This document shows, piece by piece, positions 2,189 through 62,950 of a stretch of DNA of 64,000 bases. Source of the DNA: Psammoneis japonica (taxonomy: Eukaryota); contig QPGO01000191.1 of NCBI GenBank assembly GCA_008632985.1, forward strand, positions 1-64,000, written 5' to 3'. The translations under genes were made by a program, and so were the position numbers. The stretch's first letter is position 1. Each line of letters opens with the position of its first letter. The notes beneath the pieces were generated by a model. The model worked only from the letters and a program-made list of their open reading frames with translations. It was not told where the DNA came from and did not search any database.

Positions 2189-2200
2189 GCTCTCTCGGTT

Positions 2201-37219: not shown

Positions 37220-38090
37220 AGTTTCGTTGTTGCTGCTGTATTTTCTCTACTGCGCTGCTATTTCAGAACGGACCAACCGTCCGCTTGTCAAGTGAAAAAA
37301 AAGAGTCTTGTTTGTGTGATTGAGATGCCCGAGGGCCAAAAGCGTAACAGCAGAAAGCGTTGCTTCGTTCTTCACACCCTCTTGGCGATGTTTTTGGAGA
37401 TGAGGCGGTGATCATTTTTTTTTCGAATGGCTTGCTGCTGCAAGGCTGGTATGTTTCCACGTAGAATCTACGCAATAAGTGTGGGACTGGCCTCATTCCG
37501 TAGAATGCTACGCAGCTTGTACTAAACCTTGATGGGTGGCAAGGGCTTTCAGAGCCACCCGTCTCCAGAAGATGTAGCCACGTCATCAGGGTTCGCTTTT
37601 TCTACAGGAGCTTCAGTACAAACCCAAGTTGAAGTGTGTGAGTGTGTCAACATGACGTGACGTTGGGGTGACATTGCCCCAGTGTCATGGATACAAATTT
37701 ATACAGCATTAATGAAAATGTAATAGATGCACTTCGATTGTGCCTTTCAACCACTGTGACTGGCTGTGCGCCGAAGCTGGAAACGCACTTCTTCTTGCAA
37801 CACAGCAGTGCAAGGGGGAGCAATCAAGGAGGAGTGCCGCAAAATGGAAAGAGCAGATAAGACCAACCAAGAGTGTGTTGCAGATGATGCTTTGCTGCAA
37901 AACATTTCTCCTGGAGAGAAAGAGCCCCTCGCTGCCGCTTCTCCCCCAGCTCTGCAGCAATGCACACACAAGCAGCTGCAGCAGTGCACAGCACATTTTC
38001 ATGAAAGCAAGCAGGGTCATTGAGAAGAGGCAGAGAGAGACAGAGAGAGAGGGGGGGAGAGAGAGAGAGAGGGAGAGAGAGAGAGAGACA

Positions 38091-39870
38091 GCTCACCCAT
38101 CTGGAGTGCGGTCTGGCCTTGTCGTGGGGCTTCAAAATTCTTTGGCTGCTTTCTTTTGTGCAGTGCTGGCTTCTCTGATTTGTTTGTCACATTTGTTGGC
38201 AGTGGTGATTCCAGAGAATGAGAGCTCTGATCCATCTGGAGCACTGTGTCTGGCCTTGTCATGGGGTTGCTTTTCTGCTGCAAACACTTCATTGACGACG
38301 TCTTTGGCACTTGTGCACTGTGCTTGAAGAACGAGTGCAAACAAACAAAGTGCAAATTGTGAGATTAAATTTTGCTCTGTGATTTTTGGTTTCTCCAAAC
38401 AAGCTCTCAATGGCCCAAAGCTTCTGCACTACTTCTGCAAACAAAAGGCCTTTCAGAGAATGCAGTCGTGACAACAGATTGTCCGAATGCGGCCGACTGG
38501 CATTGACACGTGAGATGTCAACATCATCTGTCAATCACATTTGCAATTTTTGACTTCTGATCAACTTTGTGTGATTGTTTTGTCCTTTGTGTGCATCCAC
38601 GGCTGTGGTGCGATTGACACATGTGCAGCGCACAATTGCAATTTTGTGTGTGTGACAGTTGCATGCTGCACTTGGCATGTCCCGACCAACCCTGCCACCA
38701 ATGCTGCAACCTGGGAAGCATTTGCCTCCAAGCTCAATGACTTTAATGTCACCTGGATCACAGGCCCCAGAAGCCACAAGTGAGCTTCATGGACCTCACA
38801 ATCTCACTCCAAGTCTCACACCTTCATGCCACCCACTGTGAAAAAGAAATGAGTTTGTGCATGTCCATCCCACCACACTCAGCTCACCCGCCTGGAGCAC
38901 TCACCGGCCCAATCACAGGCATGCTCTTTTGCTTTGAAAACCTCTGCTCTAACCAAGGAGATGATGCCAAAGCAAAAATGAAACTGCTCTGCCACTGACT
39001 GCAAGCCTGAGGCCACAAGCCCAGCAAACCACTGCCACTCTTCCACAAAGCATGTGCAAACCTCATCTTTGGCAATGCTGCCACAGCTGAAGAGCCCAGT
39101 TGAAGAACCCTGTCTTCTTGCACATCCCATGCCATCCAAATGACCCACCATCAAGCAAACTTTGGAAGCTCTGGAAAGGTGCAATGGCCCACCCTCTCTG
39201 CTCACAACCTCTCTCAAACCTCCGCAACCACGTGCAACAATGCATCAGACTCGATCACACCATTGTTGCTCTGCTCTGCAGTTGCTCACACAACCTTGGA
39301 AATTTGCTCTCATGCTGCAACCTTTGCATCTCACATGGCCCCCAGTTTCATCCTGCTGGATCGCAAACAGAGAGGCTGTTAAGAGAGAGAGAAAGAGAGA
39401 GAGAGATGAAGAGCAACACACGATTCGAACCATTTGAATCAATTGGGTGCCCAGTCTGCCCCTCACCCCCCAGATCTTTTGAGTGCAACAACTTCAACCA
39501 TGCAAACAACAGCAGCCAGCCACTGATGAAGCCACTGCAAAAGTCTCACTTTTCTGACTTTGGTGCCAACATTGTTGTGCCTGCTGTTCGCTGCAACAGC
39601 TGGACAAATGTCTGAACAAGTGGCTCCACCTTGGCCACCTGTGTCTTCTTGTTTGTCACATTTGACAGATTCAAGAGAGAGAGCTCACCCATCTGGAGTG
39701 CTGTCTGGCATTGTCATGGGGTCCCCCCATTTAAAAATCTTTGCTTTCTTCTGTGCCACACTGGCTTCTCTGATTTGTTTGTCACATTTGTTGGCAGTGG
39801 TTGCTCCAGAGAGAGAGCTCTCATCCATCTGGAGCAATGTCTGGCCTTGTCACGGGGTTGCTTTTCCACT
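38091..39870 (+). repeat. ~190-bp direct repeats (38091-38280 and 39683-39870) flanking the Penelope-like fragment; (GA)n microsatellites nearby
   Basis: Both copies share gctcacccatctggagtgc..ctggcttctctgatttgtttgtcacatttgttggcagtgg..catctggagca. Confidence 0.75.
38700..39340 (+). mobile_element. Penelope-like retroelement RT/thumb fragment, degenerate
   Basis: FMDLTISL..HATHCEKEMSLCMSIPPHSAHPPG, matching consensus LYEK.MNLY.YIPP.S.HPPG with Y->H/C; also FLHIPCHP.DP and HNLGNLLS. Confidence 0.7.
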
Positions 39871-40121
39871 TCAAAAATCTCTGCTCCAACCCAAAGATGG
39901 TGCAAAAGCAAAAATGCAAGCTTGCAAGCTGCTGCAAGCCTGACAAGCTGCTGCAGCTCTTCAAGCCATGGGCCTGCACTCTTCACTTGCAGCTCCCCCC
40001 CCCTCTGATGCTCACAACCACACTTGGCATTGAACTGGACTCACCTGCATGATTGTGCACAGCAGCCAAACCCACAATCTTGGCACAACATCCACTCATG
40101 CTGTGACCTTCCCATCCCCCC

Positions 40122-40133
40122 NNNNNNNNNNNN
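40122..40133. other. Assembly gap (N run)
   Basis: 12 N characters. Confidence 1.
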
Positions 40134-40537
40134 CCCCCTCTCCATGCACTGACAGTGGCCAAGAGAGAGAGAGAGAGAGCAGTGCATCTGCTTGGGTCAT
40201 GCCATTTGTTTGCTGAGAGCATGTGCAAGTGAGAGGAAGAGAGAGCTGGACTGCACGAGAAACTGCATTGAAAAAACAATCAAACAAATCCACTGACCTG
40301 TCTTCTGCTGGTCAGATTTTTTAAACACAATGACAGCAGCCAGCCACTGACAAAGCCACCACAAAAGTCTTGCTCCTTGCTTTGGCCCAACATTGTTGTG
40401 CCTGTCATTTGCTGAACAGTTGGACAAATGTCCAAACTGGCAGCTCCCACCTTGGCTGGTTTCACTCTTGTTTGTCACATGTTGCAGAGAATTGGCTGTG
40501 CTGATTCTGTTCATTTGTTTGAGTGAGAGAGAGAGAG

Positions 40538-40572
<35 letters not shown>

Positions 40573-41999
40573 CAGAGACAGAGAGAGAGACAGAGCAGTG
40601 CATCTGCCTGGGTCATCATGTCATTTGTTTGCTCAGAGTCTGTGCAACCTTCTGCAGCACCAGATCTTTCCCAACACAACAGCTTCAAGAACCATGTTGA
40701 CAACAGCAGCCAGCTCATCTGCAAAACATTTTCTCCACATTCAATGAAAGAGCAATTGACCAACACTTTGGCATGATGACAGAACATTGACACATTTTTC
40801 TCTGCCTCATTTTTACAATTCATTTTTACAATGCAAGGTGTGTGATGCTTCTTTGTCATTCAGCAAACAACAATTGTCTGAAATGTTCAGCTTGTTTGAA
40901 TGTGCAAAACAAAAGTGTGAAATGACAAGTTGCAAAGAACTGCAAAAAATCTTGTGATAAAAAATGCACAACTTGTTCTTCATCTGTTTTGATTTTGGGT
41001 TGTGTTTGCTGAGTTGTTGTTTGCTTTGTTCACAATTGTCTGGCATGCTCATGTGTGTGTGTCCTTGCTGTTGTTTGCACCAGAAACAAAGAGCCAACAC
41101 CGCACCTGTGCACAATTGTTTGCTGCTCATTTGCAGTTTGTCTGTTGACCAATGCATTGCAGTTTGCATTCTGTGCAGCTCACATTGCACTGACCAATTG
41201 TGACATTTGGTTTTTGCTGCCAGCCCTTGTTTGCGATCTGCCTCTTTCACCAAAATTGCTTCCTGCCTTCCAACCTTGACAACTGGAGACACTCATAATT
41301 TCTTGCATCTTGCCAGCTTCTTGCCCACCATCCCTTGATTTGCTGTCCCTTGACGTGTCATCTCCCTGCAGCTCAGCATTTGACAGAACATTGTGCTGTT
41401 GCACAACATTTGTGAAGACTTCATTGATCATTTCTGTGCCTCAGCTTTCTCACCTTTTTGTTGTTTTTTGCACAAAACAACCATCTGGCCAAGAATTTCT
41501 GCTGGCACTTTGTGTGCTCTTCTTTTGTTGATGACAACAAATGCAGCAAAGCCAATTGTGAGCATTGTGCTTCTCTTTTGAACATGTTTGACAAAACCTG
41601 TTTTGTTTCTTGTGCCCTCACCTTGTTGACATCATCCATTGTTCTTTCATCTTTTTTCAGACAACCAGTGTGCTTGCTTCACTTTGTCCCCATGTTCCTT
41701 TGTTGCGTTGGTGCATGGTGGCATTGCAAGTGTGCTGTGTCTTTTCAAATCATCAACTCATGTCAGCACCCACGGCCCCCTTTTTTGTGTTGCACCTGTC
41801 TGCGTGGGCTGCAAAGAATGAGTTTTCACTCACATGTTTTTTCCCTGCTTTTTTGCTTCAGTGTGGTTTTGAATTTTTTTTTGTTTTTTGGCAAAGGTGT
41901 TTCTGTTTGTGCACGCCATTCTTTGTTCTCACCTCTCAATGACATTGCTGTTGTGTCTGCATGTGTCACAATTCATTTTGAGTCTTGTTTGGCACTTTC

Positions 42000-44900
42000 C
42001 ATTCTTGCATGGAACACTCCATCTTGCTCACAATTTTCTGTTCAAAGATTCATTGACTTGCTTGCAACATCACCCTGTCTGAGATGCAGGAACACAGAGC
42101 TTTCATCTTGCACTCCTTCACTCCCCACAGCAACAGCACAACAGGTTTGCCACCAGGCTTTGTTTGTTTGCCATGGTGCCAAGAAGAAAACGAGCAAAGA
42201 CTCTGGCCAGGTCGATGAAGGTTGTGGTTTGCACCCCAGCAAACTTGTTGAGTTTGACACCATCCCCAGCTCATCTCATGATCTTGCCTGTGAATCAATG
42301 GAAAGTTTGTCAACCCTTCCCAACACCAGTCCACATTGAGGCTCCTCACTGGTGGGGTTCACACTTGGCCAGCTTTCTGCATCACGTTGGTTTCTCAGCA
42401 TCAGAAAAATTGTTGGACAAGCCAACAAAACTAAAAAAAAGAGCCTCAAATCCAACAAAATGAAGAGGCAACTCTGAACAAGGCCAAAATGATCTCTGAT
42501 CTCAAGGAAAAAGCAAAAATTTTGAGTTGCTGTCATGATGCAGATGAAGACATGGGCTTTTGGATGGTGATGCAGAGACCAAGAAATCCCTTGGTGAGCA
42601 GAAATTGTGAAACTCAAAAAGGACAGAATGGCATTGCATGGAAAAGTGAAACATCTGAAAGACTGCACCTCCAGTTTGAAACACAAGAAGAAGTCTGGCA
42701 GCAAAAAACAGCTGCAAAAATTGGAGGAGTTTCTTCAGTTTGTGTGCACCACTGCCTTTGGGAACCATCTGTCAATTTTCCAATTGCTCTTTGGACTTGG
42801 CTTTTCATCCAAGTTGGTGAGTGTTGCTTGGATCAATGCATCTGTCTCCATTGTTGCATTGTCTTTCTTTCCATTTCCCAACTCCCTCCTTTCTTCAGGT
42901 CATTGTCAACAAACAGAGTGTGGACAACACTATGGCATCTGCCACTTCATTTGACTTGACTTTTTGCAGTGCCTGCCATGTGTGACCTTGTTGTCAAACA
43001 TGCCACTGGTCAGCATCTCTGAAAAACAGGCAAGCACACATTTGACAGCCCTGCTTGTCATGCCTGTTTCTGGAACAAGAGGATGTTTCAGCCCAAGCTC
43101 TTCATGCTTTCAACCAAGAGTGCAGCTGTTTCAACCAGCTGCCAAAGAAGATCATCACTCCCTTTCTTCCAGTGGAGCACAGCACTTTGGAGCCAATGAG
43201 AAAACCCCACCAACATTTTGGACAAGTTGGAAAAAATTCATCATCTGAGTCTGAAACATTGTCAGAGCTGCCTGTTCCCTCAGAGGGCATTTGGCACCTT
43301 CTTCCAATGCCGCCATGAGAGAAGTGCCCCTCCCTTGCTGACTTTGGCAACACATGACAGTTGAGCAGGGCCTCAAGCAAGTGCTTCATGGTTGTCAAAA
43401 GATGAAACAAATGATGCACTTTCCTGGGCAGATGTCCATTGATGCCATTGACGCTGCCCCCAACATTTGGAATGTCCCAGAGTGCAGCTTCAACAAGGAG
43501 CTGAAAAACTCTCCTGAGCTGATGCTCTGGCAGAAGTCACTTTTTGCCATGTTCTCTTGACTCCACAACCTTGAATGAATCTTCAACCATCTTGGAAATC
43601 TGAGATTGACAAACAAACTCATGAACAAAGGCAGGGTCATCCTGAGCTTTTGGGGGGTGCCACAATCAGGGGCCATTCCAGAGAAGTTGGAGGAGTGAGA
43701 GCTGCAATGGCAAAACACATGTCATCACCCATGTGGCCTTTTGTGATGCCTGTTGTCATGCACAAGCAGAGGTGCAAATGATGAATGCCAAGTTTGTCAC
43801 CATGGTCAATCCGTGTTCCTTGCTTCACAGATGCAAGGGCTTTGGTTTCAGCAAAAACAAAACAAAGAGCATCATGGCAAAACTTGATGCAGCTCTCTTG
43901 CCAGTCCACTGTGTTCTGTCCTCAGTCCTTTCATCACAGGACTTGGGACACATTGGGGTCATGCCCAGAACAAACCAGCTCTTTGCTGGGTGGCAGAAAC
44001 AATTGTCAATGTCTCCAATCATGGTGCAAAGAACTGGCTGGGTGACCAGCCTCCCTGTTTGGTCGCAGAAGGTTGAGTTGTCAAAAGCAGGCAATGGTGG
44101 GGTGACAGTGAAGTGAGGGCGGGTCTGGTGGGCAGTCATCATCAAGTGTTTTCCAGGTCCTGTCACAGCTCTTAACAAGCTTCTTTCCACCAACCACTGC
44201 TGTTCAGAGGCCTGCAAACACAGTTGCTGGGATCTTTGGCACTGTGCTGGTGCTCTTCACAGAGTCACATGGCATCTTTGTGAAACTGCAGATCTTGGAA
44301 AAGACAGCAGGCATTGTAGAACAAAGAAGATTGGCGCACATGCATGGGAGGGAATTCAGGACCAGCATGCCTTGGCAAGGAGGTGGGCTGGCACAAGGAA
44401 GACACTTCTTCTTCATTCGGCTCATGGTTGTTGTGCACAGGACAGAATCTTGCTAAACTTGCCATTGCTCTGGGGTGCACAGTGGCAGAAGGGAAGAATG
44501 TCTTGGCACAAGTGAGCCAGAAGGTGGTTGTTTCTCATCATGACAACAAGGTCCTCTTCCACAGGATGAAGCTTCTTTGTCAAAGAACTCCTCATTTTCA
44601 GAGCATGGCTGTCTTGAAGAAGAGATGCAATGGAGCCAAGGTCCTCAATGTTGATGGGATCTGCAAACTCAAAGGAACCATCTGAGGTCAAACCACACAC
44701 ATCTTCATTGTGCAAAGGCTGAAACAAAGATTCAAAGTTGTCTTGAAAATGCCTGACCCCATCATTGCTGTGAACTGTGGGTGCATCAGAGTCATCACCT
44801 GATGATCACCTGTGTCATCAACAGAAGAGTTGCTGCAAGAAAAAACACTGGGAGATTCCTTTGGGCATCCACCAGGGAGGAAAGCACAATGGTGGGGTCA

Positions 44901-45000
44901 AAATGATGCATCCATGAGACAAACACTCAAAGCAATGTTGCTGAGGAGTGTGGATTGGAGGCTGTTGCCAGCTGAGGTGCTGAGGCTGCTCTCCATCACA
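42000..45000 (-). mobile_element. Degenerate DNA transposase remnant, Plavaka/CACTA-like
   Basis: Fragments QPVLCTMIGDID..KSWFVLGM, FCHDALCFVF..HLHLCLCM..G.DDM.CHCSSH..DC and HHLFHL resemble Plavaka-type transposases after reverting C/H to Y/R. Confidence 0.45.
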
Positions 45001-46309
45001 GTTGCATCTTCCTGATGAGGTGATGGAGTTTGCTCCACAAGCTGCAGAGAAGATGCCTTCCTTGAAAAGAAAGGAACATCATTGAGATCATCAGCAACAT
45101 GACAAGAGGGGCTCATTGCAAAATGTCAGTTGAGAGAGCTCTTGGAGGCAAAGGTTGCAAACAAACATTTGGAGTTGGGATGCTGGTGCTCAGCCGTTGT
45201 CAATGAAAAGGAGCGCAAAATGGAGAACAGTGAGTTTCTTGTCAGAGGGAGCACAACTCAAGCAAAACAAAAGAGAGTGGGGCTTGGGTTGCAAACTGCC
45301 AAAGCACAACATTGGAGCATTCCTAAAAACACAAAAACACAAATTTGTGACAAAGTTGAGGACAGAAATTCTGGCGCAAAAAAGCACCAATTTGCACACA
45401 AATGCACAAATTTGTTTTTGACAAGTTGGCCTCATCGCACAAATTTTTGATGACACACAAATCATGGCACACAACCCAATCAACTCACACAGTTGCTTGC
45501 AAGAAATGAATGATGTGCCACTCTCTCCACCATGCATCCATGACATGGGGCTGCCATCATCATTTGTTGCTTTCATGGAATGGCCCAAGTGCACATGATG
45601 TTTGATGGAATGGGGTGGGACTGCTGTGTTTCTGAGCATCAGTTGCTGCCCTCTCAAGAAAGGTGGGCACACAGGATTGTGTGCATGTGTTGGCAGTTGG
45701 CAGTTGGCATCAACTGCATTGGCAATCATGGGACTGCAGTTTGTTGCTGCATTTGCAATGGACAGAGTGCACTTGTTGTCCAACTGAGTGGTTTGCAGCA
45801 TGTGCAAAGACAGTGACAAAACATTGGTTTCTCATGGGATTGACCACTGCCACCATGCTCCTCTCCAACAGCCATGCAAGTGTTGCTCACAATTTGTTTC
45901 TCTCTCTCACACACTTTGCACTCATGCCATGTCATCCAACACTGTGCCCAGCTGCGACAGTGACAACGACTGCAGTCCAGGCCTGAGTGGCAATCACCAT
46001 GCTGCAGCAGGCAACTGCACACCTCCTCATCTCTTCATGCTGGCAGTGTGTGTCTGGAAGCAGTGACAGTGTCTCCTCATGTCATCACACCAGTGCAGTG
46101 GATCCGGTGGCAGTGATGGAAATGAAAAAGCATGAAAGTCAAGCAAGCCAAAGGGTTTGATGAACATCCCAAAGAAGAAAAAAAAGACAAAGGTCACCAC
46201 TCTAAAGCATGGTGGCAAAAGCAGAGGTGAGAACAAGTGGATCTTCCATTGTGCACTTTTTGCTCAACTTTGCACTTCTGATGCAATGCCACTGTCTGTT
46301 TCCTTTTCC

Positions 46310-49300
46310 ACACAGGAAATGGTTTCACTCAGAAGGAGACTGATGTTCTTCCAGACATCCCAGAAAACAATCTGCCTCTTTGTCATGAGGAATGGAAGTG
46401 TGTTGCCGCTGATCACATGGCATGTTTTCCTGACAACAGCCATGCCACAGATTCATTGAAGCACAAGCTTTGGCCTCTGTGCTGGCACAAGGCCCTGACT
46501 GGTGACCCAATTTGCCTTCCCAAAGAAGTGCTTTTCTACGTGGCTTCACATTGATGGTTTCTACGTGGAATTCTACGTGCGTTTTGTGCTGCGTTTTCGT
46601 CACCATGGTGACCTCTCCTCTGCTGCAGGCTGAGCCTCCCGGCAACTCTCCTCCTGATCCTCCCCATGAAAATGGCGAGTCTCCTCCAACCCCTCCCCAT
46701 GCTGGAAACGGCAAATCCAAACATGACAATGCCAATGAGATTGCCCTCAGGTTTGAGTTTACCTCCGATGACCCCAATGCTTCCATGGCATCAGCTGTGG
46801 GACACACGATGGTGTCCCAAACCCTGCAACAAAAGGCCACTCAAGATCCTCTTACAAACAAAATTTCAACATTCTCCAACAGTGGCAAGACCATTCCCAA
46901 AATCAACATGGTTGATTGGATGACTGGACTTGCTCATTCTCAACACTTCACAATTCATCGCATCGGCGGATCTTGTTGGTGCAAGCCAACGCATGTAATT
47001 GCCCACCGAATCAGGACTGCTCTCACCCTCTCTGACATTCAAGACATTCCATTTGTCACCAAAACTCTCAAGGATAACTCCATTTTTATGTGCCGACATG
47101 AGTGGGATGAAACTGTTGCCGATCTTGTCCACATCGTGCAAATCTCTGAACATCTTCCCCGCCACTGCTCTGCGGATGTTGTGATTAAACGTCTTCAGGC
47201 AGTTGTTCCGAACAGTTGTCGTGCCAAGCTCCCGATCCATCTGATCCCTCAGAAAATCACTTCACCAACGGACAAGTCCATCCGTGCAGATTTTCACTCC
47301 ATTGAAACCCCATGAGACAAAGCAAGGGAAGTTGTCAAAGTCTTGTTGGAAATTCTGAAGGAGCACCCCCGATTCTCAATTCTTTCCCGCTGGAGATTCT
47401 CTGCAATGGAAGCAGAAGCCTGTGAGAAAGAGGTCGAACACCAACACAAACTTGCTTCCATGACATGCGCAACTCCCCTGCTGCACCACACCGCAGACAT
47501 GAATTTTTGCCTTCGCCCTCAGCTCATCCTCTTGGAAGGTGTCCATGACATCATTCCATCCAAACGTCAGTCCATGATTTCATGCTACAACGTGTCAGTG
47601 TCCAAGATGTTTCACAAGAAAGTCCAAGAACTTCTTCCTCCAACTCTTCAGAGCATGGCAAATGACTTGCCAGAAGATGCCTCGCCAATGTCAGGTTCTC
47701 CACAGCCAATGACACAGGGCCTCTCCGATGATGTGTCTGATGCGGCAAACTTTGTCACTTCTGCAAGTGTCCGCAGCTGGACTTCTTTGGACATTTCAGA
47801 AATTTCTCAAAACAGCATTCCTCCTCCACCTCCAGCCCCCTCAGATGCACCTGCCCCACCGGTCCCCAACAATGCAGGTGTTCACCCGTTCAAGACATTT
47901 GCTCAAGCACTAAATTCAGCACCGACCAATCAGCCTGTCACACCTGCAACCTCCGACATTGCTGATCATGCTTCGGACCTTGAAGATTTGCATCAGGAAA
48001 TTGCACGGATGCAAAAGGAAAATGAGATTCGGCTTGCCAGAATTGAAGAACAACATCAACAGTCCATGGCTGCTCTCCAGGAAACATTGGAACAACAGCA
48101 TCAGACACAAATCACAAGCCTGGTCCAGCAACTGCAGACAGTCATTCAAGAGTGTCTTCCTCTGCCAGATTCCCTGTCTGACTCATGCTTGTCCCCAGCT
48201 GGCAAGAAACCTGCAGCATCTGCTCCTGCCAGCTCTTCCTCGGAGGAACCTCCTGATCTGTCCCTGATGGATGCCACTCAAGACGATGCAAATTTTTAAC
48301 AGGGCGAACCAAGTCGTCATTTTCGCCCAACAACACCAACGCAGATTTACAATCTCTCTCTCAGCCTCCCTTCGAGAGAGCAAAGCCTTGCCATGAGGGG
48401 TGATCCCCTTTTGCTCACTGATTTTCCCTCTGCTGAGCAGGGGACTCCACCTGATGAGATGCCACTCCCCAGTTCTAACCCTGAAGACACATTGCCTCTG
48501 GCAGCCGATCCTGCCGGTTCACCTGCTCCCCCATCTCTGCAACATGTGGCCCAACAATGGAACAACCTTCTTGATGGCCGATGTTGTGACCTTCCTTCCC
48601 AGACCATTGATTGTTCTAACTTGCGTGCAAATGACCCCATTGGCGATCATCTGGGCCCCAAAGAACCTGACACGACCCGACTGTGTGCTTTCAATGCAAA
48701 CGGATGTTCCTGCAACTCTCTCGGTGGCAATTTCAATTCCCATTGTCAAGCAATCAATGAACTGCAGGCAGACATCATTGGCATCTCTGAGACATGCTTG
48801 GATGCCACTCAACCGCAAATTTCACAGACCTGCAGACAGGTGGTGCATTCCTCCCTCCATCATGGTCGGCTGACTTTGTCAGCATCTTCCATCCCCTTCA
48901 CTGCCCCTTGTGAGCCAGGTGGAACTGCCACAATCTCCTGCAATTCCTTGGCGTCTTGCTGCCGAACACAGAAGATGGATCCCCTGGGCAGATGGTCAAT
49001 CCAGATTTTTGATGGGAAGCAAGGCAAACAAATCATGTTTGTTTCATGTTGCAGAGTGTGTGCCAACAGAACATCCGCTGCAGGCAAGACTGCTGCATGT
49101 GCTCAACAAGTTAACTTGCTCCGCGCAGAGGGTCGCGCTCACCCTGAACCCCATTGAGCCTTTTGTGAGGACCTCTCACAACTTTTGGAAGCATTTTTGT
49201 ATGAACCCAACAGAGAGGTGGTCCCATTTGGTGACTTTAGTGCGGACTTCCGACATGATGCGGACCTCTTGGCTCGCATGGCGATTCGCTTTCGACTCTC

Positions 49301-52300
49301 TGATGTCATGCACAGTTGCACGCAAGACATGGACTTCGCCACCTGCCTTTGTGGCTCCAGAAGGCTGGGTTGTGTGCTGGCCACCCCTGGCACCCTTCAT
49401 GCAGTCACACATTGCGGCTGTGAACCTTTTGGATGCTGTGCGTCTCGTCAGATCATCGTGCTTGCTTTGTCGATTTCGATGCGATGCAGCTCTTTGGCAA
49501 CACCTCGGTGGACGTCCCGAAGCCTGCTCACTGCACACTTCAAACCAAATTGCCCAAACAGGCGACCGCTTGCCTGGAAGCAATCGGCCCCATGCTGCTG
49601 AGCTGCGACGTTTTGCAGCACAGTGAAGATCTTCTCGCCTCCGAGACTCCTGACCCCCTGCTTGCGGAACGTCCAGACCGTGACATGACTCAGTTTTGCA
49701 TTGCAGCCGCCAAGCATTGTTGCCAATTTCATGAACCCGAGTGGTCTCTGAAATTAGCAGATCTCTGGCGAAAAGTTTTTGTTCTCTCTCGACTGCTCTC
49801 CATGTTCAAAAACAGGGTCAATTTTGTCCCAGCGATCATTGGAGAACGGTCTCAACTCAAGTCTACCTTTTTGATCCCAACAACAATGGCAGAATGCCAA
49901 ACCGCTTTACGACAGGCACAAAAAGAATGCAAGAAAATCGCCAAAGACAGTCCACATCACAGAGAACGTGAGCGGGATTCTCGCATGGCGGAACTCGACT
50001 TAGAGGGTGCCACGGCCTCCAAGATGCAGGCCCGGATTCTCCGAAATGTGCATTGTGCAGAAGAAACTGACCAAGCATTCCGCAAAGTTGACGCATTTAA
50101 GGACAAAGACAGTTCAAGTGTCACTGACATCCAGGTCCCCAAAGATCCTGCTGCTGATCCTAAAACTTGCGAACATTGGATTGCCATTGATGCCCCAAAA
50201 GATGTCGAGGCTGCTCTTGCTTCCCAGAATCAGAAGCACTTTGGTCAGGCTCATGGCACTAGACCCACTGTTCTGCCATTGTCCGTAGACCTTGGTTGTG
50301 AAGGCAACACTGTTGTGGCAGAATTGATGCTCGACGGAGACTGCGATGCCTTTAACATGACCGAAGCTGCTGCCTTGCTCGCACAGCATCTCCGTCTCCG
50401 GCAGCTGTCTCCAACTTCCTCACGGAGTCCGCCCTTGGGAAAAAATTTAAAACTTGGTCAGAACCCACCTCCACATCCCTGAAATCTGGGTTGCACCTTG
50501 GCCACTGGAAGGCAACGTGTGCGAAGCACGTTCACTCGTCCACTGCGGATGAACTTGGTGACCCCACCGACAAACGTCTCGAACTGGACAATGTGCAAGA
50601 AACACCACAGGCCATTCGTCTGAACCTCCTAAATTGTGTGCTCAAATGGGGTTGCTCATGCAATTGATGGAGAGACATTGTGAATGTTGTGATTTTCAAA
50701 GAGCCCAGGAACAATGAAGTCTGCCGGCTGCGAGTCATCCACATCTGTGAAGCAGACTTCCAATTGATCACAAGTGTTAAATGGCGTGCTCTTGCACAGC
50801 ACATGGAACATCAGCGCCTCTACAATCCAGGGATGTGTGGCACCAGAGCCTTCCTTTGTGCCCAGACACCTGTCTTTTTGGAAGCGCCAATGCCAGAAAT
50901 TTCCAGAGCATCCAGAAAAACCCTCATTGCCAGCGACGACGACTGCACCTCATGCTGCAACCGCAACATCCCGGCTTTGATGGCAGCAATGTCAATGAGC
51001 CTTGGAATGGACCCAATGGCAGAGGCAGTTGCAATTCACACTGTTCACTTGGCATGGCACTGGTTGCTCACCCTTCTGGGAACAGCGGAAGATTCTTGCT
51101 TGCATTCATCCAAGCACCCCATTTGTGGAACTGGTCAAGGCAGTGGAAACTCCCCCTTTCACTGGAACAATCTTTGCAGCTTGCTCTTTGACATCTTTGA
51201 TGCCAAAGCTCATGGTGCCTTTCTTTGAATCCCCAGACAGATCACATCAGCTGCGCATTTTTGCAAGAGGGTGTGTTGACGACACTTCAAAACAAGTGAA
51301 TGATTTCTGTGTCTCGCCTCAACCTTCAGCAGACAAACTGGCATTGCATCTTCAACATGACAACCAATTATGGTGTGATCTGCTGCACACTGGTGGCCAT
51401 GAATTAGAGCCACCAAAATGCTCCTTCCACGTTGTTGAATGGGAGTTCTCCGAACATGGTGAACCAAATCTAAGACCGCACAACCATGACCTGGATGTTG
51501 AAATCTTTTCAGCAGATCAGACCTCCTCATGATGCAGCACTCAACCATCCCCGTTTGCTCCCCACAAGACGCTGGGTCACTGTCCTTCTCCATCAGGAAA
51601 GCCAAAGAAACAGCTTCAAGTCCTTAAAGACAAAAGTGGCGGGAAGGCCCTTTTTGTCCAATCTGTTCCTCTGGATCGCGTCAAATCATGGCGGCATCGC
51701 CATGCGTGTCACTTGCCCTCAGCAGCATTTGTTCTTGCCAACTCTCACTTTGCCATGAAAGAACTCTTGAAAATTCAACAACAAGCTGTGAGAGTTACAT
51801 TTGCCAAGTGTGGATGTGACAGGAACACAAAATGTGCCATTCTGTTTGGCCCTCAATCGCTGGGTGGCAGAGGTTTCCGGTCTCTGGACGTGGAGCAAGG
51901 TGTCGCACAGATGCAGCAACTCTTGCATCACACCCATGGAGCGCAGTCACTCCTGCAAGACGATCAGCCATGCAAAGCTGTGCATGTTGCCATCTCATGG
52001 ATCCAGTTGCAAGTTGGCACTGGGGTGAGTTTTTTGAAGGACGTCAGTGCTCCTCACCCACACTGTGAATCTCTGTGGTTTGTGTCCGCAAGGTCCTTTT
52101 TGCTTCAAGTGAATGGCTCCATTTGCTTGTCCGACGACGGTGCACTGCCTCTTCAGCACAACAATGACCAACACTTGATGGATGATGCTCTCGACATGCC
52201 CCAATTCTCAGCTCAAGACATCCGCTGGATAAATTGTTGCAGGATGCACCTCAAGGTTCTCACGGCTTCAGACATCACCCTTGCTTGTGGTTTGCTGCTC

Positions 52301-55150
52301 AACAAATCAAAAATGCATGGAGATCCCACCTTTCTCAGTGGCATCAGCACGCTCAATGACATCAAACAAGAAAAACCTTGCCACAGAGCATGGCGCCCTT
52401 GGATTGAAGTTTGTGAGTCATTGTGCCACCCGAATTCAACGAGACTGAAAGATCCTTTGGGCGATTGGCTTCTGCCCCCTTCCAAGATGAGGATGAGTGC
52501 GAGTGCATGCTGCTCTCCAGCAGAATCTTGCCTGCATGTCAGATCTCCAACAGGACACGACATTTTCTCTGTCGTCATGCACACAGCTGAGGATTTGTTT
52601 CCCTCAGAGACTGTCCCTTGTCCTTCCAACGAATCCTTCCCGGTCGAAATCAGTGCGTCCCATCACGGTCATTGGCAATTTTCCCAGCATCGTGTGGTTC
52701 TGGTGCTAGAAACACCCCCCCCCCCCCCTCTTCCAGATTGTTTCCATGATCGTCTTCAGGCGTTGCCTTGATGGGAAGCAGCTCTCTTCAGAGACATGAC
52801 TTTCCATGTGCCCCTGAACTCTCTGATCGATTTGTTGCTGACAGATCATCTCACTGCAGGAAGTGATGGCTCCATCCCACACCAGCAGGCCACTTTCGGA
52901 TGGACTGTTACGATCCAGGGCACTCCGCTGGTGGACTGTGCTGGCCCTGTGTTTGGCAGGTTGCCTTCATTGTGCCGGTCGGAGGCATGTGGAGTTCCAT
53001 CGATTTCAAGGTTTCTGTTTCGAGTCCTCAAGTGTGGCAAAGTTTCCCATTGCTTTGGAATGGACAACTGGTGTGACAACAAAGCCTTGGTTAAAGTGCT
53101 GCAAAGACCGCATTCTTCCCACCCGTCTGTCGATCCGATCACCCAAGACAATCAAGACAAAGATTACAATCTGCGCCATCATGACGCCAATGTGCTGTCA
53201 TCGGATTGGGATTTTGCAAACGAGACACTGCAGACTGCTGCGAACATTGCAGATCAGTTGGATCCCTCCTCTGCTGGTCAAGTGCCTCTAGTCAAATGGG
53301 TTGAAGGTCACCAAGATCGTCATGCACCAGTCGAAACACTGCCTTTAAACGCAAAAGTAAACATCCGTGCAGACAAGTTGGCTGGACAGCATCAACGTCA
53401 AATCTCAGAGGACACGACAGAGGTCATTCCACTCCCGCACTGCCAAGCTTGTCTTTCTCTTTCCAATGGTGCTGTTGCAGCGGGCCTCAAAGCCTTGGTC
53501 TGGTGCACAGCAACAGCCCCTGCTCTCATGCTCTACACACAAGAGAGAAACCAATGGGACGACACTGTCACGTCATTGATTGATTGGAACGCACATGCGA
53601 CTTTGGCAAAACGGTTTTCTAAACAACATGTCTCCACGGTCAAACTGATTCACAAGCTGTCACCTGCCAACAAGATCACCCACAGGCACAACCCAGTCCG
53701 CCCTCACCATTGTTTGTCTTGCAAGAGCCCCATGGAAGACAGAGACCACATCCTACGATGTCCTGCCAATGAAGACTGGAGACGCACATTTCTTCAGGGT
53801 TTGAAGAAGTGCTGCGACAAGATTGACACCATGCCTCCCCTTCGAGACTTCCTGTTGTCGTCCTTGGAACAATGGTTCCACAACAAAATGATGCACGCGA
53901 CAGATGCCCCCCCACTTCTCAGGTCATTGTGGCAAGCTCAGACTGGCATTGGATTTCGTCAGATTTTTAATGGCCGTTTCTCCTCCCTGTGGAACACATT
54001 TCAAGAGATCCACCTTAGAGAGTCGGGTTCACTTGAGCAATGTCGTAAAGAGAATCGTCCTCCCCCAGTGTGGGCAGTTCAAATTGGAACACACATGTGG
54101 CGGTCTTGGTGGGAGCTGTGGGAAAGACACAACAAACAGGTTCACGGACACGATCTAGATGCACGCAAATCCTCACAACGACGCATCGCAGAAGCAGAAC
54201 TCACCGCTGTTTGTGACAAATGGCAAGAATGTCTTGCAAAGGACAGAGCAGATCTCATGGATGCTTTGGAGGATCACTTGGCACACGGCACATCGCAGAT
54301 TGTGAATTGGGTGTCAATGATCAAACCCCGCCTTAAAGCCAGCATCAAAGAAGCAAAGAGTCTCATGCTCCGAGGCACACATTCCATTGCCAGTTGTTTC
54401 GGGAGGGCATCACCTTCTGGTGACGCCTCTGTTGGCTAGCCCCTGTTTCCCTTCTGCCGCACTAGCTCAGTTCACTGGAAGTGTGGGTTAGCCGGCGTCG
54501 GCATGGCTGACAAAGGAGTGGTGGCACTTGCAAAAATAGATCTGGTTTTTTTGCCTTCCCAAAGAAGTGAGCCATGCCAAGAAAATCCAACATGACATGC
54601 AGAAAAAGGCAGACATGTCAGAGGCAGAGGATGATGGAGGTGCTTTTTGGTGCTCAGGAGATGAAGGTGACAAAAACAATGACAAAGTGCAGCATTGTGA
54701 GCTCAACCTGGCTGCCACCCATGGTGTTGCTGGCACCCCTGTTGCTGCCAACACAAGTGACTCTGATGATGAGGAAGAGGAAGCAGTGCACCCAACTCCA
54801 ACAAAAGAGTGCACACAGGAAGCTCTGGGGACAGCGGCCATCAATCAGAGGAAGTCTGCCACCATGAAGACTTCCAACAAGGATGGAGGGAAAACAGCCA
54901 ATCAAAAGGAGCCTGGCACCTGCCAGATTGTCAAGAAGCACAGGAAGAAGGGAGGTCCAAGTGCCAAAAGGAAAAAGCACAGCTGCAGCGCTGATCCTGA
55001 AGAAAGTGTCAGCAAAGATGATGTCACAAAGTTCCTCCAGATGAGCATGTTGTGGAGGATGCAAGGCCAGAGAGAACATGAGGAGGAGCCTGGCGGCAAT
55101 GCTGGCAATGCCCCATCCAATGGTGCCAGATTGACATCATCAGCTTGGCA
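46310..55150 (+). pseudogene. Myb-like/DUF6818-type ORF (often TE-associated), split by the LINE: 46310-46530 + 54570-55150
   Basis: GNGFTQKETDVL..NNLPLCHEEW..DSLKHKLW..TGDPICLPKEV continues in register after the LINE as SHAKKIQHDMQKKAD. Confidence 0.6.
46531..54549 (+). mobile_element. Full-length ~8.0-kb non-LTR retrotransposon (Ambal-like: ORF1; ORF2 APE-RT-RNase H), degenerate, with a 20-bp TSD
   Basis: TSD TTTGCCTTCCCAAAGAAGTG at 46511-46530 and 54550-54569. ORF1 ~46604-48299. APE motifs FNANG, IGISET, DPLGRWS, FGDF, SDHR. RT motifs KEPRN..RLRVIH, DDDCTSCCNR, GTGQGSGNSP, GCVDD. RNase H motifs GSDGS, RSEACG, WCDNKAL, WVEGHQD, NIRADKLA. Confidence 0.92.
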
Positions 55151-56444
55151 GGTGCCATGGGCTCAGAGATCACGCATGACCCAGCATCAGTGAATTGTTC
55201 CTTTGTGAGCTTGCTTGGAGCTGCTGCCAACACCAACAGCCACCAGTGCATGCCATGCAGGAGGAGATGGTGCTGTGTCATCAGCTTGCAACTCCCCAGC
55301 TGCCGCCACCAAACCATCAATGAATCAACTGGCTGGCTCAAGCTCACTCAGATCCACACAAAATGACATGGAGGGTGCCATGGATGAGAACAAAACAGCG
55401 GGTGTCCAGCGTCAGCGTAACAGCTTTTGTGACCACAATGAATCAACCGGCCAATGCAAGGTTGCTTGGAGCCATGCAAAACAAAACACAGAGGGTGCCG
55501 TTGACAAGAAAAAACAACAGGCATCTGGCGTCAGTGCAGCAGCATCTCACAACTGTTGTCAGAAGTGTGGTTTGCAATCAAACTCAAAAGCAAGTGTGGT
55601 TTGATGAAATTGTTTGCATTGACACATCACTTTGTTTCTCTCAAAAGTGCATTGATGGATGTGATCTTGGAGGAACAATCACAAAGCATCCGCGCAATGA
55701 CGCAGAGGGTGCCACAGATGAGAGCAATGCAGCAAGCATCTGGTGTCAGCATGACTGCATTTTGTGACTGCTGTTGCAAGTGTGCTTCACAATTGAACTC
55801 AAAAGCATGGTTTGATGAACTCATTTGCCTTGATGTGGAGCTGGGAAATGTGCGCACTCTGAATCTGGTCAAGACTGACACATCCACCCCAAACACTGCA
55901 GAGAAGAAGCACGATCATGATCTTCAAAACAATCTTCCTTTCTGCACTGCCCTCTCTGTTGTGCCAAAGTGCAACAAGAAGCCAGTGAAAACCAAAACAG
56001 GAAAACCAGGTCAGAAAGAGGGCCATGAAAACAAGTGAGAAAAACTTGTGTTTGTGAGTGAAGTGACACACCAGAAATTCACACTGGCTGTGCCATCTTC
56101 AATTCATCAATGGAGCACATTTTTTGCATTGCAGATGTGTTTGCAGACAGACATTGATGATTGTTGTGTGTTTTGTCATTTCAGAACACCAAAAACAACA
56201 CAATGTTTCCAACATGCAACACAAGAAAACACTGGAAATGACACATTGTTGTGATGCACTTGCGCTGCAGAGAAAGGGTTGTGCTGCAAACCAAAAGTTG
56301 TGTTGTTGTGCCTGCTGTCAATCTGCAGCACTTGGATGAACATCAAACAAGTGACTTCTGCCTTGGCTGGTTTCTGTTCTTTGTCAGTCACATTTGATGG
56401 GTGGTTGGCCATGCCTGCCAACTCATCATTTCATTTAAGAGAGA

Positions 56445-56487
<43 letters not shown>

Positions 56488-57150
56488 CTGGCAAAGATCA
56501 GCAAAGAAAACAGAGTCAAAACTCTCAATCCATTGTTGTGGCTTGCAGCCACAGCCAACAATGCCAGAGCTGCCCCATGGACAAAGATGGCAAGAGAAGA
56601 GAGAAATTTCTTTGAGAGAGACAGCCAGCTGCACTTCTAGAAAGCCCTCCCGCCAGCATGCAGTGTGCCTCTGCACTTGCCTGAAGTCATTGCCAGCTTC
56701 AAAGAGTGGTGTGGTTTGTGAGAGACAACCCAGGTGTGCCAACAGCAGCACAACCACCCAACAACCACCCCCTCATCCTTGCCAAGCAGCACCACCCAAC
56801 CCGCCCACCCCCTTGAAAGAAAAGCAAGCACGGGGAAGCTGCAGCCAGGTGGCAAGTGTGTCCTGCCTGTGGCACACTTGCTCAGGGCACATTGATGAAT
56901 TGTGCACACTCACACTGGAATCTGGAGAGAGTTGCTGCTGCAGTCTTGGCTTTGCTGGCAAGCAATCACCAGTCCTCCAAGAACAAAGAGTTTGCAACCA
57001 GGAGGAACAGCCCATTTGTGTGGCACAGAATGAGTCATGTTCTGTCAAGCAACAAGACAGTTTTGTCACCCTTGTTTGCTTTGAGACAGAAGTGCCTGGT
57101 GACAAAGCAGTGATACAGAGATGGGCATCCTCAACAGCAAGTGTGATTCA
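55150..57150. repeat. Degenerate TpA/CpG-depleted repeat sequence with internal ~120-bp repeats and a (GA)n tract at ~56438-56487
   Basis: Recurring gagggtgcc..gagaa/gagc..gcatctgg.gtcag units between ~55370 and 55800; essentially no TA. Confidence 0.55.
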
Positions 57151-57466: not shown

Positions 57467-58411
57467 CTACTCACAGTAGCTTCCCTCTGGATAATGCCCG
57501 GACGTGCCTAGTAAGACTCGGACGCGGTCGTCCCAAAAGACTTCTATCATCGAGTCAACCACGTCACCCAATGTCGATTGAGAGAAATAGTTCCAATAGT
57601 AGTCGTAGTCAAAATCGCTGTTCAAATATGCGAGCCACGACGGCTCGTCGGATGGTATGCTTGTCATCTCTCGTGTACCGTAGGAAGTGTCGTATCGGGT
57701 TCCGGTTGTAGAGTTGAAGGAGGGATTGAAGGCCGAAGGAGGATACACGCCTCTATGCTGTTTTGACCCCTGTCCATCGATCATTGACGAAAATAATACC
57801 ATGAAGCAGAGGAAGGTGACTACAATAGTGATCCAATCTGCAGCATACTTCAAATGAGGATGCGGCGTATCAGTTGAGTCAGGTTCCTTGGGTGCCGACG
57901 CCGACGGTTGAGGAGTCAACCACCGGCGATTGTCTTCCGGATGGTAATCTGGATTCACTGGTGGCGGTCGCTCGTCCATGTCATACTTTGCCTCCTCCCT
58001 TACTATTTGATTATCGTTGTTCTGTGAGGGTGGCATCATTACATCCAGGTACTCGATCTCCCGTGAGAGTGCTGATTCTGTAGTTGTGTCGAAGAGAGTC
58101 GTTCGGACCGGAGATGGTTCTTCGCCAGACTCATTCCTGGTAGTCGTCAACGGCACATCGTCAGAGTTGAGTTTGTTTTGTGGTTGACGATCCTTCAAAT
58201 ACCTCCTAAACCATACAATTAAGGCAATGATGTTCTTCAAGGCAATGGCTAATACAATCGCCAGGGCCCAAAATACAATTTGCATGATGGCATCCAAGAG
58301 AAATTCAATTTGCATCATGAAGGCATCCAAGAGAAATACAATTTCCATCATGGTCTCCAAGAGAGAAAATGCCATCCCACCAAATATACCGAGAAACAAC
58401 AGTTCAAGCAT
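57467..58411 (-). CDS. Hypothetical membrane protein with short N-terminal tandem repeats (LL[D/E].M.I)
   Basis: Long ORF of normal composition with TM segments; ~30-33-nt tandem units at ~58270-58370. Confidence 0.6.
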   Translation of the reverse strand: MLELLFLGIFGGMAFSLLETMMEIVFLLDAFMMQIEFLLDAIMQIVFWALAIVLAIALKNIIALIVWFRRYLKDRQPQNKLNSDDVPLTTTRNESGEEPSPVRTTLFDTTTESALSREIEYLDVMMPPSQNNDNQIVREEAKYDMDERPPPVNPDYHPEDNRRWLTPQPSASAPKEPDSTDTPHPHLKYAADWITIVVTFLCFMVLFSSMIDGQGSKQHRGVYPPSAFNPSFNSTTGTRYDTSYGTREMTSIPSDEPSWLAYLNSDFDYDYYWNYFSQSTLGDVVDSMIEVFWDDRVRVLLGTSGHYPEGSYCE

Positions 58412-59124
58412 TATGACAACAAAATGTTGGGAGGTGTATGTTGCTTCGTCAAAGACTAAACAAGAATAGATGTGGTTGTGGTCAACATGAGATATCCATA
58501 CAGAGGTGCGTAAAGAAGCGCGTGGATAGAACATAACGTTCTCAGTTCTCAGGGCCTTTGAAAGCTTGGATTGAACTTTGCAGCGAAAGTCATGAAGCTG
58601 ATTGGCCTTCGAAATGAATGAATGGTGGAAATATGCAGAATGATGGGTGGTGCTGCCAACGTGGGACTCGGAGATCGAGGGTTCAAGGGAGGAGATGAGT
58701 GGACGAGGACCAAGGCTAATGTGGCCAGGTGCGCGGGGCAGTCAAGTCACTAAGAGGAGTCGTCCGCTTCATGATAGCTATGCCAGCAACAAAAGCACTT
58801 CTTATTCTTACAGCTGTTTTTCCGAGTCCAAACTGGAGATAAAGAGCCCTTACATTGCGTCAGCATTGTGTTGGTAAAGAATACCTCCATTCCATTTGCG
58901 AGGAACCTCAATGATCCTGATGTGCTTTACGCACGCTAGGGCCAATTGTCAGTTTGGGCGGCTTGGTCTTTACGGATACGCCCTCCTCCTTGTTGAGCTC
59001 GCTGCTCTAAACATGTTATGAAACATTGCCTCTTTTGTTGCAACAAACGCAAATCGAAAACGGCGCGTATCATACCATACGTCCTGGATCGAAGTCGCGT
59101 CTACGCTGTACAAAGCAATCCCAA

Positions 59125-59637: not shown

Positions 59638-59884
59638 GCTTCTTTGTTGCTTTTAATCCTTTTACGTAAGAGCAATGTGAAAGATATTCAACTAAAGATA
59701 GGAACCTCCTTGAATTCTCTGGCGGCGTTCACAGTAGTAGTTGTTGTTGTCGTTACATTGTGAATTTGCTCGGGCGGTTTTGAGAAAGTTCAAACGAGCC
59801 CATGTGGGCCGCGGCAATAGCTGTTGGCTTTGTGACAGCTTGTTGGTGTCACCAAAAATTTGTTCCGACAGAACATTGGGTACA

Positions 59885-61273: not shown

Positions 61274-61301
61274 ACACAAATTTTGGCGCCAAAATTTGTG
61301 T
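61274..61301. promoter_or_regulatory. Perfect 28-bp palindrome containing a double E2F-like site
   Basis: ACACAAATTTTGGCGCCAAAATTTGTGT at the edge of an AT-rich tract. Confidence 0.5.
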
Positions 61302-62896: not shown

Positions 62897-62950
62897 CTCA
62901 CAACTTTGATCTCAACAGAGTCCCTCACAACTTTGATCTCAACAGAGTCC
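62897..62950. repeat. Perfect 2x27-bp tandem duplication
   Basis: ctcacaactttgatctcaacagagtcc occurs twice in tandem. Confidence 0.9.

Follow-up and report, generated by a model that had tools for sequence, protein, structure and literature searches.

Introduction

To our knowledge, host-driven hypermutation of selfish DNA runs in two established directions, both starting from cytosine: repeat-induced point mutation (RIP) and editing by APOBEC enzymes. Fungal RIP changes C:G to T:A, mostly CpA to TpA; it creates TA dinucleotides and stop codons and lowers the G+C content. A counterpart on the adenine side, or the TpA side, has been reported once, for the chlorarachniophyte Bigelowiella natans, in a 2026 preprint in whose available text no enzyme is identified (Mettrop et al., bioRxiv 2026, 10.64898/2026.01.13.699255). 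Here, we describe a 64,000-nucleotide stretch of the diatom Psammoneis japonica (assembly GCA_008632985.1, contig QPGO01000191.1, positions 1 to 64,000 of the forward strand; hereafter the window) in which retrotransposon-derived DNA is almost devoid of TA and appears to have exchanged it for TG and CA. The locus appears to be the first case of TpA hypermutation in a diatom, and it is well supported that it is of the same kind as the very recently described, mechanistically unsolved process of B. natans.

In mutation-accumulation lines of B. natans, TpA hypermutation causes two integrated viral regions to mutate ∼1000-fold above the rest of the genome (Mettrop et al., 2026). Nearly every change is A>G/T>C, without exception at TpA; the changes arise in some lines only and amount to about 6e-7 per site per generation. 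The main targets, a nucleocytoplasmic large DNA virus and a virophage, are only partly depleted (Rho_TpA 0.45). Among the coding sequences of that genome, the TpA-poor ones show an enrichment of reverse transcriptase (RT) and DDE domains. As the enzyme, an ADAT2-like DNA adenine deaminase is put forward by the authors. Within the available part of the preprint, diatoms have 0 occurrences, and neither CpG nor trinucleotide context is mentioned.

The chemistry of the TadA/ADAT2-3 and ADAR deaminases, from A to hypoxanthine, would yield A-to-G changes. The natural tRNA substrate of ADAT has U33 before A34, and ADARs favor a 5′ U. The amphioxus enzyme BjADAT2 acts on DNA, in GAA and TCG contexts and on hairpin or single-stranded substrates, as far as the published account could be consulted (PMC10354150); the P. 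japonica changes, in contrast, fall at T-A-Y (Y, pyrimidine) on both chromosomal strands. Diatom DNMT4 proteins are related to the RIP factor RID, and their function is given as unknown in the part of the source available (PMC9998398).

The P. japonica locus shares with B. natans the conversion of TpA to TpG/CpA on both strands, foreign or mobile DNA as its site, and a TpA depletion that is coupled to a gain of CpA and TpG. The B. natans lines, from a rhizarian, show mutations arising; the diatom, a stramenopile, presents the end state only, on retrotransposons and closer to saturation. The 3′-base preference and the relation to CpG that we measured are absent from the accessible text of the preprint. 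Like RIP, the process places transitions densely and with sharp edges in mobile or duplicated DNA and destroys the element, but its direction is the opposite: TA is lost, TAA and TAG vanish, and the G+C content does not fall. It also shares with APOBEC3, a host deaminase defense, a dinucleotide-specific scar in integrated retroelements; however, APOBEC3 converts C to U on minus-strand cDNA and leaves asymmetric G-to-A changes, whereas the diatom changes are symmetric and run from A:T to G:C.

Results

TA dinucleotides are nearly absent from the main block and three smaller regions

We defined the depleted set as positions 37859-57113 (the main block), 1-2190, 5164-8594, and 25118-26184 of the window, 25,943 bp pooled (25.9 kb). 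This set contained 120 TA dinucleotides (4.6 per kb), against 1362 in the 38,057 bp of normal DNA (35.8 per kb). In a per-kb dinucleotide table, the ratio of observed to expected TA (o/e) was 0.00-0.17 in all 19 of the 1-kb bins starting from 38001 to 56001. The smaller regions had TA o/e values of 0.13 and 0.23 (1-2000), 0.05-0.25 (5001-9000), and 0.07 (the bin at 25001), so that 26 bins lay at or below 0.25: those of 1-2000, 5001-9000, and 25001-26000 and the nineteen from 38001 to 56001. The remaining, gene-bearing bins had TA o/e values of 0.29-0.76 with CpG near 1. The longest TA-free runs measured 1242, 1136, and 1018 bp.

The boundaries of TA loss were sharp, to within less than ∼150 bp. 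At the left edge of the main block, TA density was normal up to 37724 and was followed by lone TAs at 37858, 38366, and 38430; at the right edge, only the TAs at 56638 and 57114 remained before density became normal again from 57152. The near-absence of TA that the initial annotation had noted in a ∼19.5-kb block and three smaller regions, next to genes with normal TA, is therefore confirmed, and its estimate by eye of about ten TA in 40141-45120 agrees with the 10 that we counted in 40001-45000.

We then compared the remaining dinucleotides. The difference per kb between depleted and normal DNA was -31.2 for TA, -36.4 for CG, and +61.5 for CA/TG, and other classes changed by 18.5 or less. Per kb of the main block, CG o/e was 0.02-0.73 and TG/CA o/e was 1.3-2.3; the mean TG/CA o/e was 1.50-2.12 across the bins 38001-56001, each of which had a TA o/e of 0.17 or less. 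Measured against 1.52, the figure of the B. natans type in the accessible preprint text, the lone shortfall was the bin at 49001 with 1.50, and CpG decay accounts for part of the TG/CA gain. AA/TT stood at 153.2 per kb in depleted and 155.6 in normal DNA, AT at 52.2 and 62.6, and the G+C fraction at 0.496 and 0.484, respectively. We estimate that roughly 87% of the expected TAs were converted overall and ∼94% in 38-46.5 kb.

The loss also changed the supply of stop codons. On both strands of the main block together, we counted 75 TAA, 45 TAG, and 923 TGA triplets, and 152 stop-to-stop open reading frames (ORFs) of at least 70 aa were distributed over all six frames of 37859-57113, most of them without homologues. 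The abundance of long ORFs in every frame is therefore a by-product of the near-absence of TAA and TAG and does not reflect genes.

The depleted DNA and its TA-normal control consist of the following features (strand in brackets where one is assigned).

1-2190 (+): Copia-type long terminal repeat (LTR) retrotransposon fragment, the RT-RNase H part, truncated by the start of the window; Pfam RVT_2
2692-4065 (-): copy A, a TA-normal paralogue that serves as a natural control; 58 TA and 85 CG in 1.37 kb
5164-8594: second TA-poor block, which holds copy B; 16 TA in 3431 bp
6613-8021 (-): copy B, a decayed RNase H-like paralogue with an in-frame stop and with Tyr replaced by His or Cys
25118-26184: short TA-free, CpG-poor intergenic block; 3 TA and 16 CG in 1067 bp
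37859-57113: main TA-free block, a mosaic of decayed mobile-element sequence
37859-40121: high-copy repeat zone with internal repeated segments, TA-free, recognized by contig depth
40122-40133: run of 12 N, an assembly gap or masked stretch in the repeat zone, across which the order of the flanks rests on the assembly
40134-46500: most decayed part, with TA and CpG nearly gone; 12 TA and 26 CG in 6367 bp
46506-48587 (+): open frame 5′ of the LINE ORF2, possibly the 5′ portion of that element or its ORF1; TA o/e 0.07-0.10
48588-54421 (+): near full-length ORF2 remnant of a long interspersed nuclear element (LINE), with apurinic/apyrimidinic endonuclease, RT, and a long C-terminal domain; three frame changes and in-frame stops

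The identifiable depleted elements are all retroelements, namely Copia, the LINE, and the RNase H-like fragment. When 29 and subsequently 17 ORFs from the depleted regions were compared with Pfam, Copia RVT_2 was the sole match, and none of 21 ORFs scanned in TA-normal DNA matched a mobile-element family. A retroelement origin could not be recognized for about 8 kb of the depleted DNA; Pfam and homologue searches detected no relatives for 40134-46500, 55.2-57.1 kb, or 25118-26184. The ORF at 41428-42336, within a part where Pfam gave no matches, had no homologue in a word-indexed search at near lengths. There was likewise no Pfam match for the open frame 46506-48587, although three ORFs run in the same frame through 46506-49154 with single stops alone between them. 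In the repeat zone, the summed contig depth reached 11,951 at 38067-38733, compared with ∼53 in single-copy flank, which implies a copy number of roughly one hundred or higher for this repeat. A Penelope element that had been proposed at 38831 found no Pfam match at E≤5. Leaving aside the ∼8 kb of uncertain origin, these data support the conclusion that TA loss is confined to transposon-derived DNA and that the neighboring host genes are spared.

A paralogue pair and conserved tyrosines give the direction of change

To polarize the changes, we used copy A and copy B, which are 78% identical in a self-BLAST alignment. The 58 TAs of copy A were read in copy B as CA (20), TG (18), or TA (7), so that 38/58 had become TG or CA; in the reverse comparison, 7 of the 11 TAs of copy B were shared and 1 was CA in copy A. 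A>G changes from copy A to copy B occurred at 39/112 TpA sites versus 56/568 other A sites (odds ratio 4.9, p = 3e-10), the TA-specific excess of A>G that the initial annotation had expected. Moreover, 29/85 CG in copy A read TG or CA in copy B. At the peptide level, HYIGTYATNNVAEY of copy A reads HHIGAEATNNVAEC in copy B, GDYQV reads GECQV, and HIYRDRN reads HIHRDRN.

An RNase H-like ORF of 161 aa is intact in copy A (3307-3789, -); it matches Pfam RVT_3 over its full length (E 2.8e-24) and has its decayed paralogue at 7242-7727. This ORF may be a domesticated or recently arrived transposable-element domain that escaped the TpA process. It lies directly 3′ of an alpha/beta-hydrolase gene (4099-5046, -).

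The Copia fragment (2-2185, +) has 120 diatom or environmental homologues at 41-61% identity, some of them from Fragilaria crotonensis. In comparison with 70 homologues, 3/18 conserved Tyr columns were kept, 6 had become Cys and 6 His, whereas 56-100% of the conserved columns of other residue classes were kept. The Tyr content of the fragment, 0.7%, was lower than that of every one of the 120 homologues (2.1-4.7%). The altered peptides cited in the initial annotation lie inside the Pfam RVT_2 region of Copia (CDCRSVVGMLMHL..DIAHA at 1403-1475 and HVDD at ∼1100) and inside the RT region of the LINE (DDDCTSCCNR at 50935 and GCVDD at 51269).

The LINE remnant gave the same picture. Positions 48588-54421 are collinear with 14 homologues of ∼1560-2116 aa (tblastn; residues 13-1929 of the homologue P0243 covered). 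The homologues bear Pfam Exo_endo_phos and RVT_1, whereas the LINE ORFs themselves matched neither RVT_1 nor Exo_endo_phos, even at E≤5. None of the 25 Tyr codons conserved in the 14 homologues was kept; 16 had become TGY (Cys) and 4 CAY (His). Among first-position A>G replacements (T>A, I>V, K>E, etc.), 18/23 were preceded by T, compared with 2/43 of the retained A-first codons. The C-terminal domain contained 0.4% Tyr versus 1.7-4.9% in 124 homologues. The replacement of Tyr by Cys or His, at 12/18 columns in Copia and 20/25 in the LINE, is the A:T to G:C change at TpA that characterizes the B. natans type. Judged from these alignments, a direction from TA to TG/CA is well supported, and the three independent polarizations, by paralogue, Copia, and LINE, agree.

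Conversion affects both strands, prefers T-A-Y, and is separable from CpG decay

We next asked how the changes are distributed over the two strands. The counts of TG and CA on the sense strand were near-equal in each sub-block (719/733 in 40.1-46.5 kb, 801/908 in the LINE, and 165/189 in Copia), and their strand skew was no greater than in genes. The process therefore affects both strands, as had been deduced from the co-occurrence of TG and CA products.

Survival of TA depended on its neighbors. Relative to the numbers expected from normal regions, 0 of ∼81 ATAT and 2 of ∼148 ATAC/GTAT remained, compared with 21 of ∼33 TTAA. We fitted an additive four-parameter model, in which the rate of A loss on each strand is set by the 3′ neighbor, and obtained rates of 0.24 (A), 0.61 (G), 1.52 (C), and 2.52 (T). 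The model reproduced 10/10 tetranucleotide classes (likelihood-ratio chi-square of 129 versus a uniform rate). The preferred motif is clearly T-A-Y, with the rate ordered by 3′ base as T > C > G > A. Over Copia and the LINE together, TAY codons had become Cys in 22 cases and His in 10, in agreement with the prediction of the model that TGY exceeds CAY.

CpG is also lost from most depleted regions (6-32 per kb versus 59.7 per kb), a collapse that the initial annotation had missed. That annotation had also stated that CpG decay creates TpA; it yields TpG/CpA. Methyl-CpG decay co-occurs in the same regions and feeds the same TG/CA products, but it cannot remove TA and accounts for the CG loss only and for part of the TG/CA gain. 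The CpG loss was almost context-free, with CG ratios of 0.28-0.59 over 10 contexts (r = 0.35-0.63) and no TCG preference. The two losses also differ in tempo: half of the CpG has been lost in the LINE and 90% in the oldest part, while Copia, with TA at 11.0 per kb (31% of normal, ∼70% lost), retains 68.9 CpG per kb and is undepleted. Of the two processes, TA conversion has thus been by far the faster in this fragment.

In a search for further TA-free copies, we examined 80 environmental Copia loci from a metagenome, which were picked by protein similarity and are therefore biased against mutated copies. Three of them, L051, L079, and L061, had CpG o/e values of 0.03, 0.18, and 0.27 with ordinary TA (0.47-0.76); the locus with a CpG o/e of 0.03 had a TA o/e of 0.47 and kept 11/11 conserved Tyr. 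TA loss without CpG loss in the Copia fragment, together with CpG loss without TA loss in environmental Copia, establishes TA conversion as a distinct process. One low-TA locus was found among the 80 (L065, 1776 bp), with o/e values of 0.18 for TA, 0.10 for CpG, and 1.59 for TG/CA. It retains 7/11 conserved Tyr and so provides no clear second instance; it is possibly a mild second case, from an unknown organism.

Repeats within the main block showed 21 adjacent TG/CA double differences over five pairs, e.g., 38082-38284/39674-39875. Read as mutation histories, such doubles imply that one ancestral palindromic step, TA or CG, would have been resolved independently, on different strands, in different copies.

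Independently built read contigs carry the same bases

We also checked whether the bases of the main block are present in raw reads. A public run contained 82% of the sampled words of 40200-49800, and contigs that were built independently from that run had 0 differences from the window at 46501-50703, 50679-52037, and 53035-53780. These stretches of 4203, 1359, and 746 bp (6.3 kb in all) had a depth of 34-39. The raw-read support that the initial annotation had called for is thus present for these stretches. The identity of the contigs excludes an assembler or polishing artifact, while the bases may still be peculiar to the sample.

Contigs at least 80% alike to the window differed from it chiefly by transitions: each of the four types was seen at 178-207 places, and each transversion type at 16-43. 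Among 40 of the 1043 variant rows, there were at least three adjacent CA/TG doubles and at least two sites that are TA in the window and TG in the reads. Divergence between the run contigs and the window was ∼0.5% in unique flank and 1.5-2.5% in three pieces, among those listed, of 41.1-44.1 kb. Together with the depth of 34-39 in the identical contigs versus ∼55 elsewhere, this suggests two haplotypes or strains that are more diverged inside the decayed block.

Discussion

A probable DNA-level process acting on dead elements

The data require a process that is DNA-level, strand-symmetric, motif-specific, confined with sharp edges to mobile-element DNA, and near-complete, and its most economical reading is enzymatic deamination of adenine at T-A-Y. 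We hold the mutational signature itself with high confidence. On balance, we favor the interpretation that dead retrotransposon relics were driven almost to completion by a DNA-level conversion of TpA to TpG/CpA, with CpG decay superimposed; an adenine-deaminating enzyme is the most plausible agent. Its components differ in strength: a targeted enzymatic process on chromosomal DNA is, in our judgment, somewhat probable, whereas adenine deamination specifically is proposed only tentatively.

In the proposed scheme, the relics comprise the Copia fragment, the near full-length LINE, the high-copy repeats, and older unidentifiable debris. An enzyme directed at silenced or foreign DNA would deaminate the adenine of T-A-Y and leave hypoxanthine, a base that is read as G. 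Repeated events on both strands would pile up in place after insertion, in copies already dead. TA is part of Tyr codons, of TAA/TAG, of TATA-like sequences, and of AATAAA-type signals, and its loss erases them. The element is thereby severely affected without new stops, and the process may serve defense. No ADAT2-like deaminase was found among the ORFs of the window by Pfam scans.

The interpretation offered in the initial annotation survives as to a directional change of TpA to TpG/CpA on both strands of transposon DNA, and gives way on two points. It had called the process repeat-targeted; much of the main block is now near single-copy depth in the read contigs, and any dependence on homology would be hypothetical. 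Of the A/B pair, only copy B was mutated, and at 78% identity the two may never have been recognizable as repeats. It had also supposed that no such system was described, and the same TpA signature is reported in the accessible text of the B. natans preprint (Mettrop et al., 2026). Our literature search found no diatom report of a TpA-depletion scar, though most subscription journals fell outside its coverage.

Several observations weigh against adenine deamination in place or against its generality. The supporting run was probably made from the very sample that was assembled and so is not sample-independent, and its contigs differ from the window at 37650, 37703, and 37711 and at many sites in 41137-44318. 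In the A/B pair, the 3′-base preference is a trend only (TAY 27/63 versus TAR, R being a purine, 13/51; p = 0.075), and the residual TAs from which the context model is built may partly be new mutations rather than survivors. The TG/CA doubles could derive from CG as well as from TA. TA-normal copy A lies 2.5 kb from depleted copy B, so duplication by itself is no trigger; and with 1/80 environmental Copia loci mildly affected, in a sample biased against mutated copies, the trait is not general in diatom-like transposable elements. Sharp edges are also to be expected if the elements had been edited before they arrived, and self-BLAST found no LTR pair in the window, post-insertion timing being a matter of inference. 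Lastly, in the part of the account available, the adenine context preferred by the only natural ADAT2 with demonstrated DNA editing is GAA and not TA (PMC10354150).

Alternative explanations

An alternative is that editing took place before integration: retroelement RNA would have been edited from A to I by an ADAR-like enzyme, and/or first-strand cDNA deaminated, and the copies would have arrived TA-poor. That the identifiable depleted elements are all retroelements fits this alternative, and the sharp edges would then be insertion boundaries. ADAR and TadA-type enzymes also favor U before the edited A. The same 5′ preference is noted in the accessible preprint on B. natans (Mettrop et al., 2026), where, on the other hand, the targets are integrated DNA viruses. 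In P. japonica, both strands are about equally converted, whereas the traces of RNA editing would be limited to the sense strand. ADARs prefer a 3′ G. The sense-strand TG/CA counts of Copia and the LINE and the order T > C > G > A, a preference for 3′ pyrimidine and not G, depart from the pattern of such an enzyme on both counts. The extent of conversion estimated above speaks against this alternative as well, as does the ∼8 kb of depleted DNA without recognizable retroelement origin. Furthermore, the LINE lost 25/25 scored Tyr, and copies in that state would be unable to keep cycling to gather edits. We regard editing before integration as unlikely.

We consider it improbable to a similar degree that a chromosomal process has the thymine of TpA as its target, e.g., through a TET/JBP-type dioxygenase that would oxidize T to 5-hydroxymethyl- or 5-formyl-uracil; these would mispair with G and yield T>C, with R-T-A as the motif on that strand. 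The changes TA to CA and TA to TG are complementary, so sequence alone cannot separate adenine- from thymine-directed chemistry. In dinoflagellates, 5-hydroxymethyluracil is enriched at TpA/TpC, and 5-formyluracil gives A:T to G:C changes. However, the outcome in the A/B pair follows, in small numbers, the base 3′ of A (the TAY and TAR counts above) and not the base two positions 5′ of A (22/63 versus 18/51), as expected of an enzyme centered on A, and we know of no thymine-modifying system in diatoms.

Selection or a compositional force, such as UpA avoidance in RNA, GC-biased gene conversion, or natively TA-poor transposable-element lineages, is very unlikely. UpA avoidance is widespread, and TA is mildly low throughout the window (o/e about 0.3-0.75 in genes). 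Nevertheless, conserved and catalytically important Tyr residues are replaced and frames are broken, which indicates decay and not adaptation. AA/TT is unchanged and AT only mildly lower, so there is no general drive from weak to strong base pairs; the G+C content of depleted and normal DNA is close, and copy A and 79/80 environmental Copia loci are not TA-poor. Finally, a technical artifact, i.e., systematic errors of base calling or polishing where bases are modified, or a stable modification that sequencers take for G or C, could draw on the repetitive nature of the block, its 12-N gap, and the probable origin of the supporting run, but is scarcely credible, since noisy reads would not give the exact match of the raw-read contigs, the adjoining genes are normal, a strand-specific miscall would produce conflicting strand calls rather than clean, fixed TG in one place and CA in another, and the amino-acid pattern and the context-dependent survival are as accumulated mutation predicts.

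Implications

The T-A-Y preference, strand symmetry, independence from CpG loss, and speed in Copia constrain the search for the enzyme. The diatom scar and the B. natans report together indicate that the process is no peculiarity of one alga or of viral inserts. We find it nearly balanced, though short of even, whether diatoms possess an active chromatin- or RNA-guided T-A-Y adenine editor that acts on both strands of double-stranded chromosomal DNA in silenced mobile elements and is related to that of B. natans by descent or by convergence. If they do, TpA editing would be an ancient form of genome immunity across the SAR supergroup (stramenopiles, alveolates, and Rhizaria) and a mirror image of RIP, one that would disarm elements by removing Tyr codons, TATA-like sequences, and poly(A) signals while adding no stop codons. 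A natural DNA adenine editor with a three-base motif would, if true, be of interest for biotechnology.

There are also practical consequences. Transposable-element annotation and gene calling in diatoms are misled by such DNA, because proteins stripped of Tyr score below Pfam cutoffs and, with TAA and TAG gone, every frame fills with spurious long ORFs. A window scan of TpA versus CpA+TpG could map silenced DNA in protist genomes.

Neighboring genes and minor features of the window

The host genes in 8957-37246 and 57470-64000 have ordinary TA and CpG content. Those beside the depleted blocks encode a RING-H2 protein, an SNF2-family ATPase, a RimM-domain protein, ELP1 (a 1434-aa ORF), an AdoHcyase-like protein, a PQ-loop protein, acetolactate synthase, a RING finger protein, and an amino-acid kinase that is fused to, or lies next to, an aldehyde dehydrogenase-like ORF. 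The acetolactate synthase is 58-68% identical to diatom proteins, from which the source is judged to be a pennate diatom.

Three AG-rich, microsatellite-like stretches lie at 38022-38099, 40164-40180, and 56438-56489. A direct repeat of 96 bp with 88.5% identity (9919-10014/15953-16048) occurs in otherwise unique, TA-normal genic DNA, and a perfect 28-bp palindrome, which matches its own reverse complement, was found at 61274-61301 in an AT-richer intergenic stretch.

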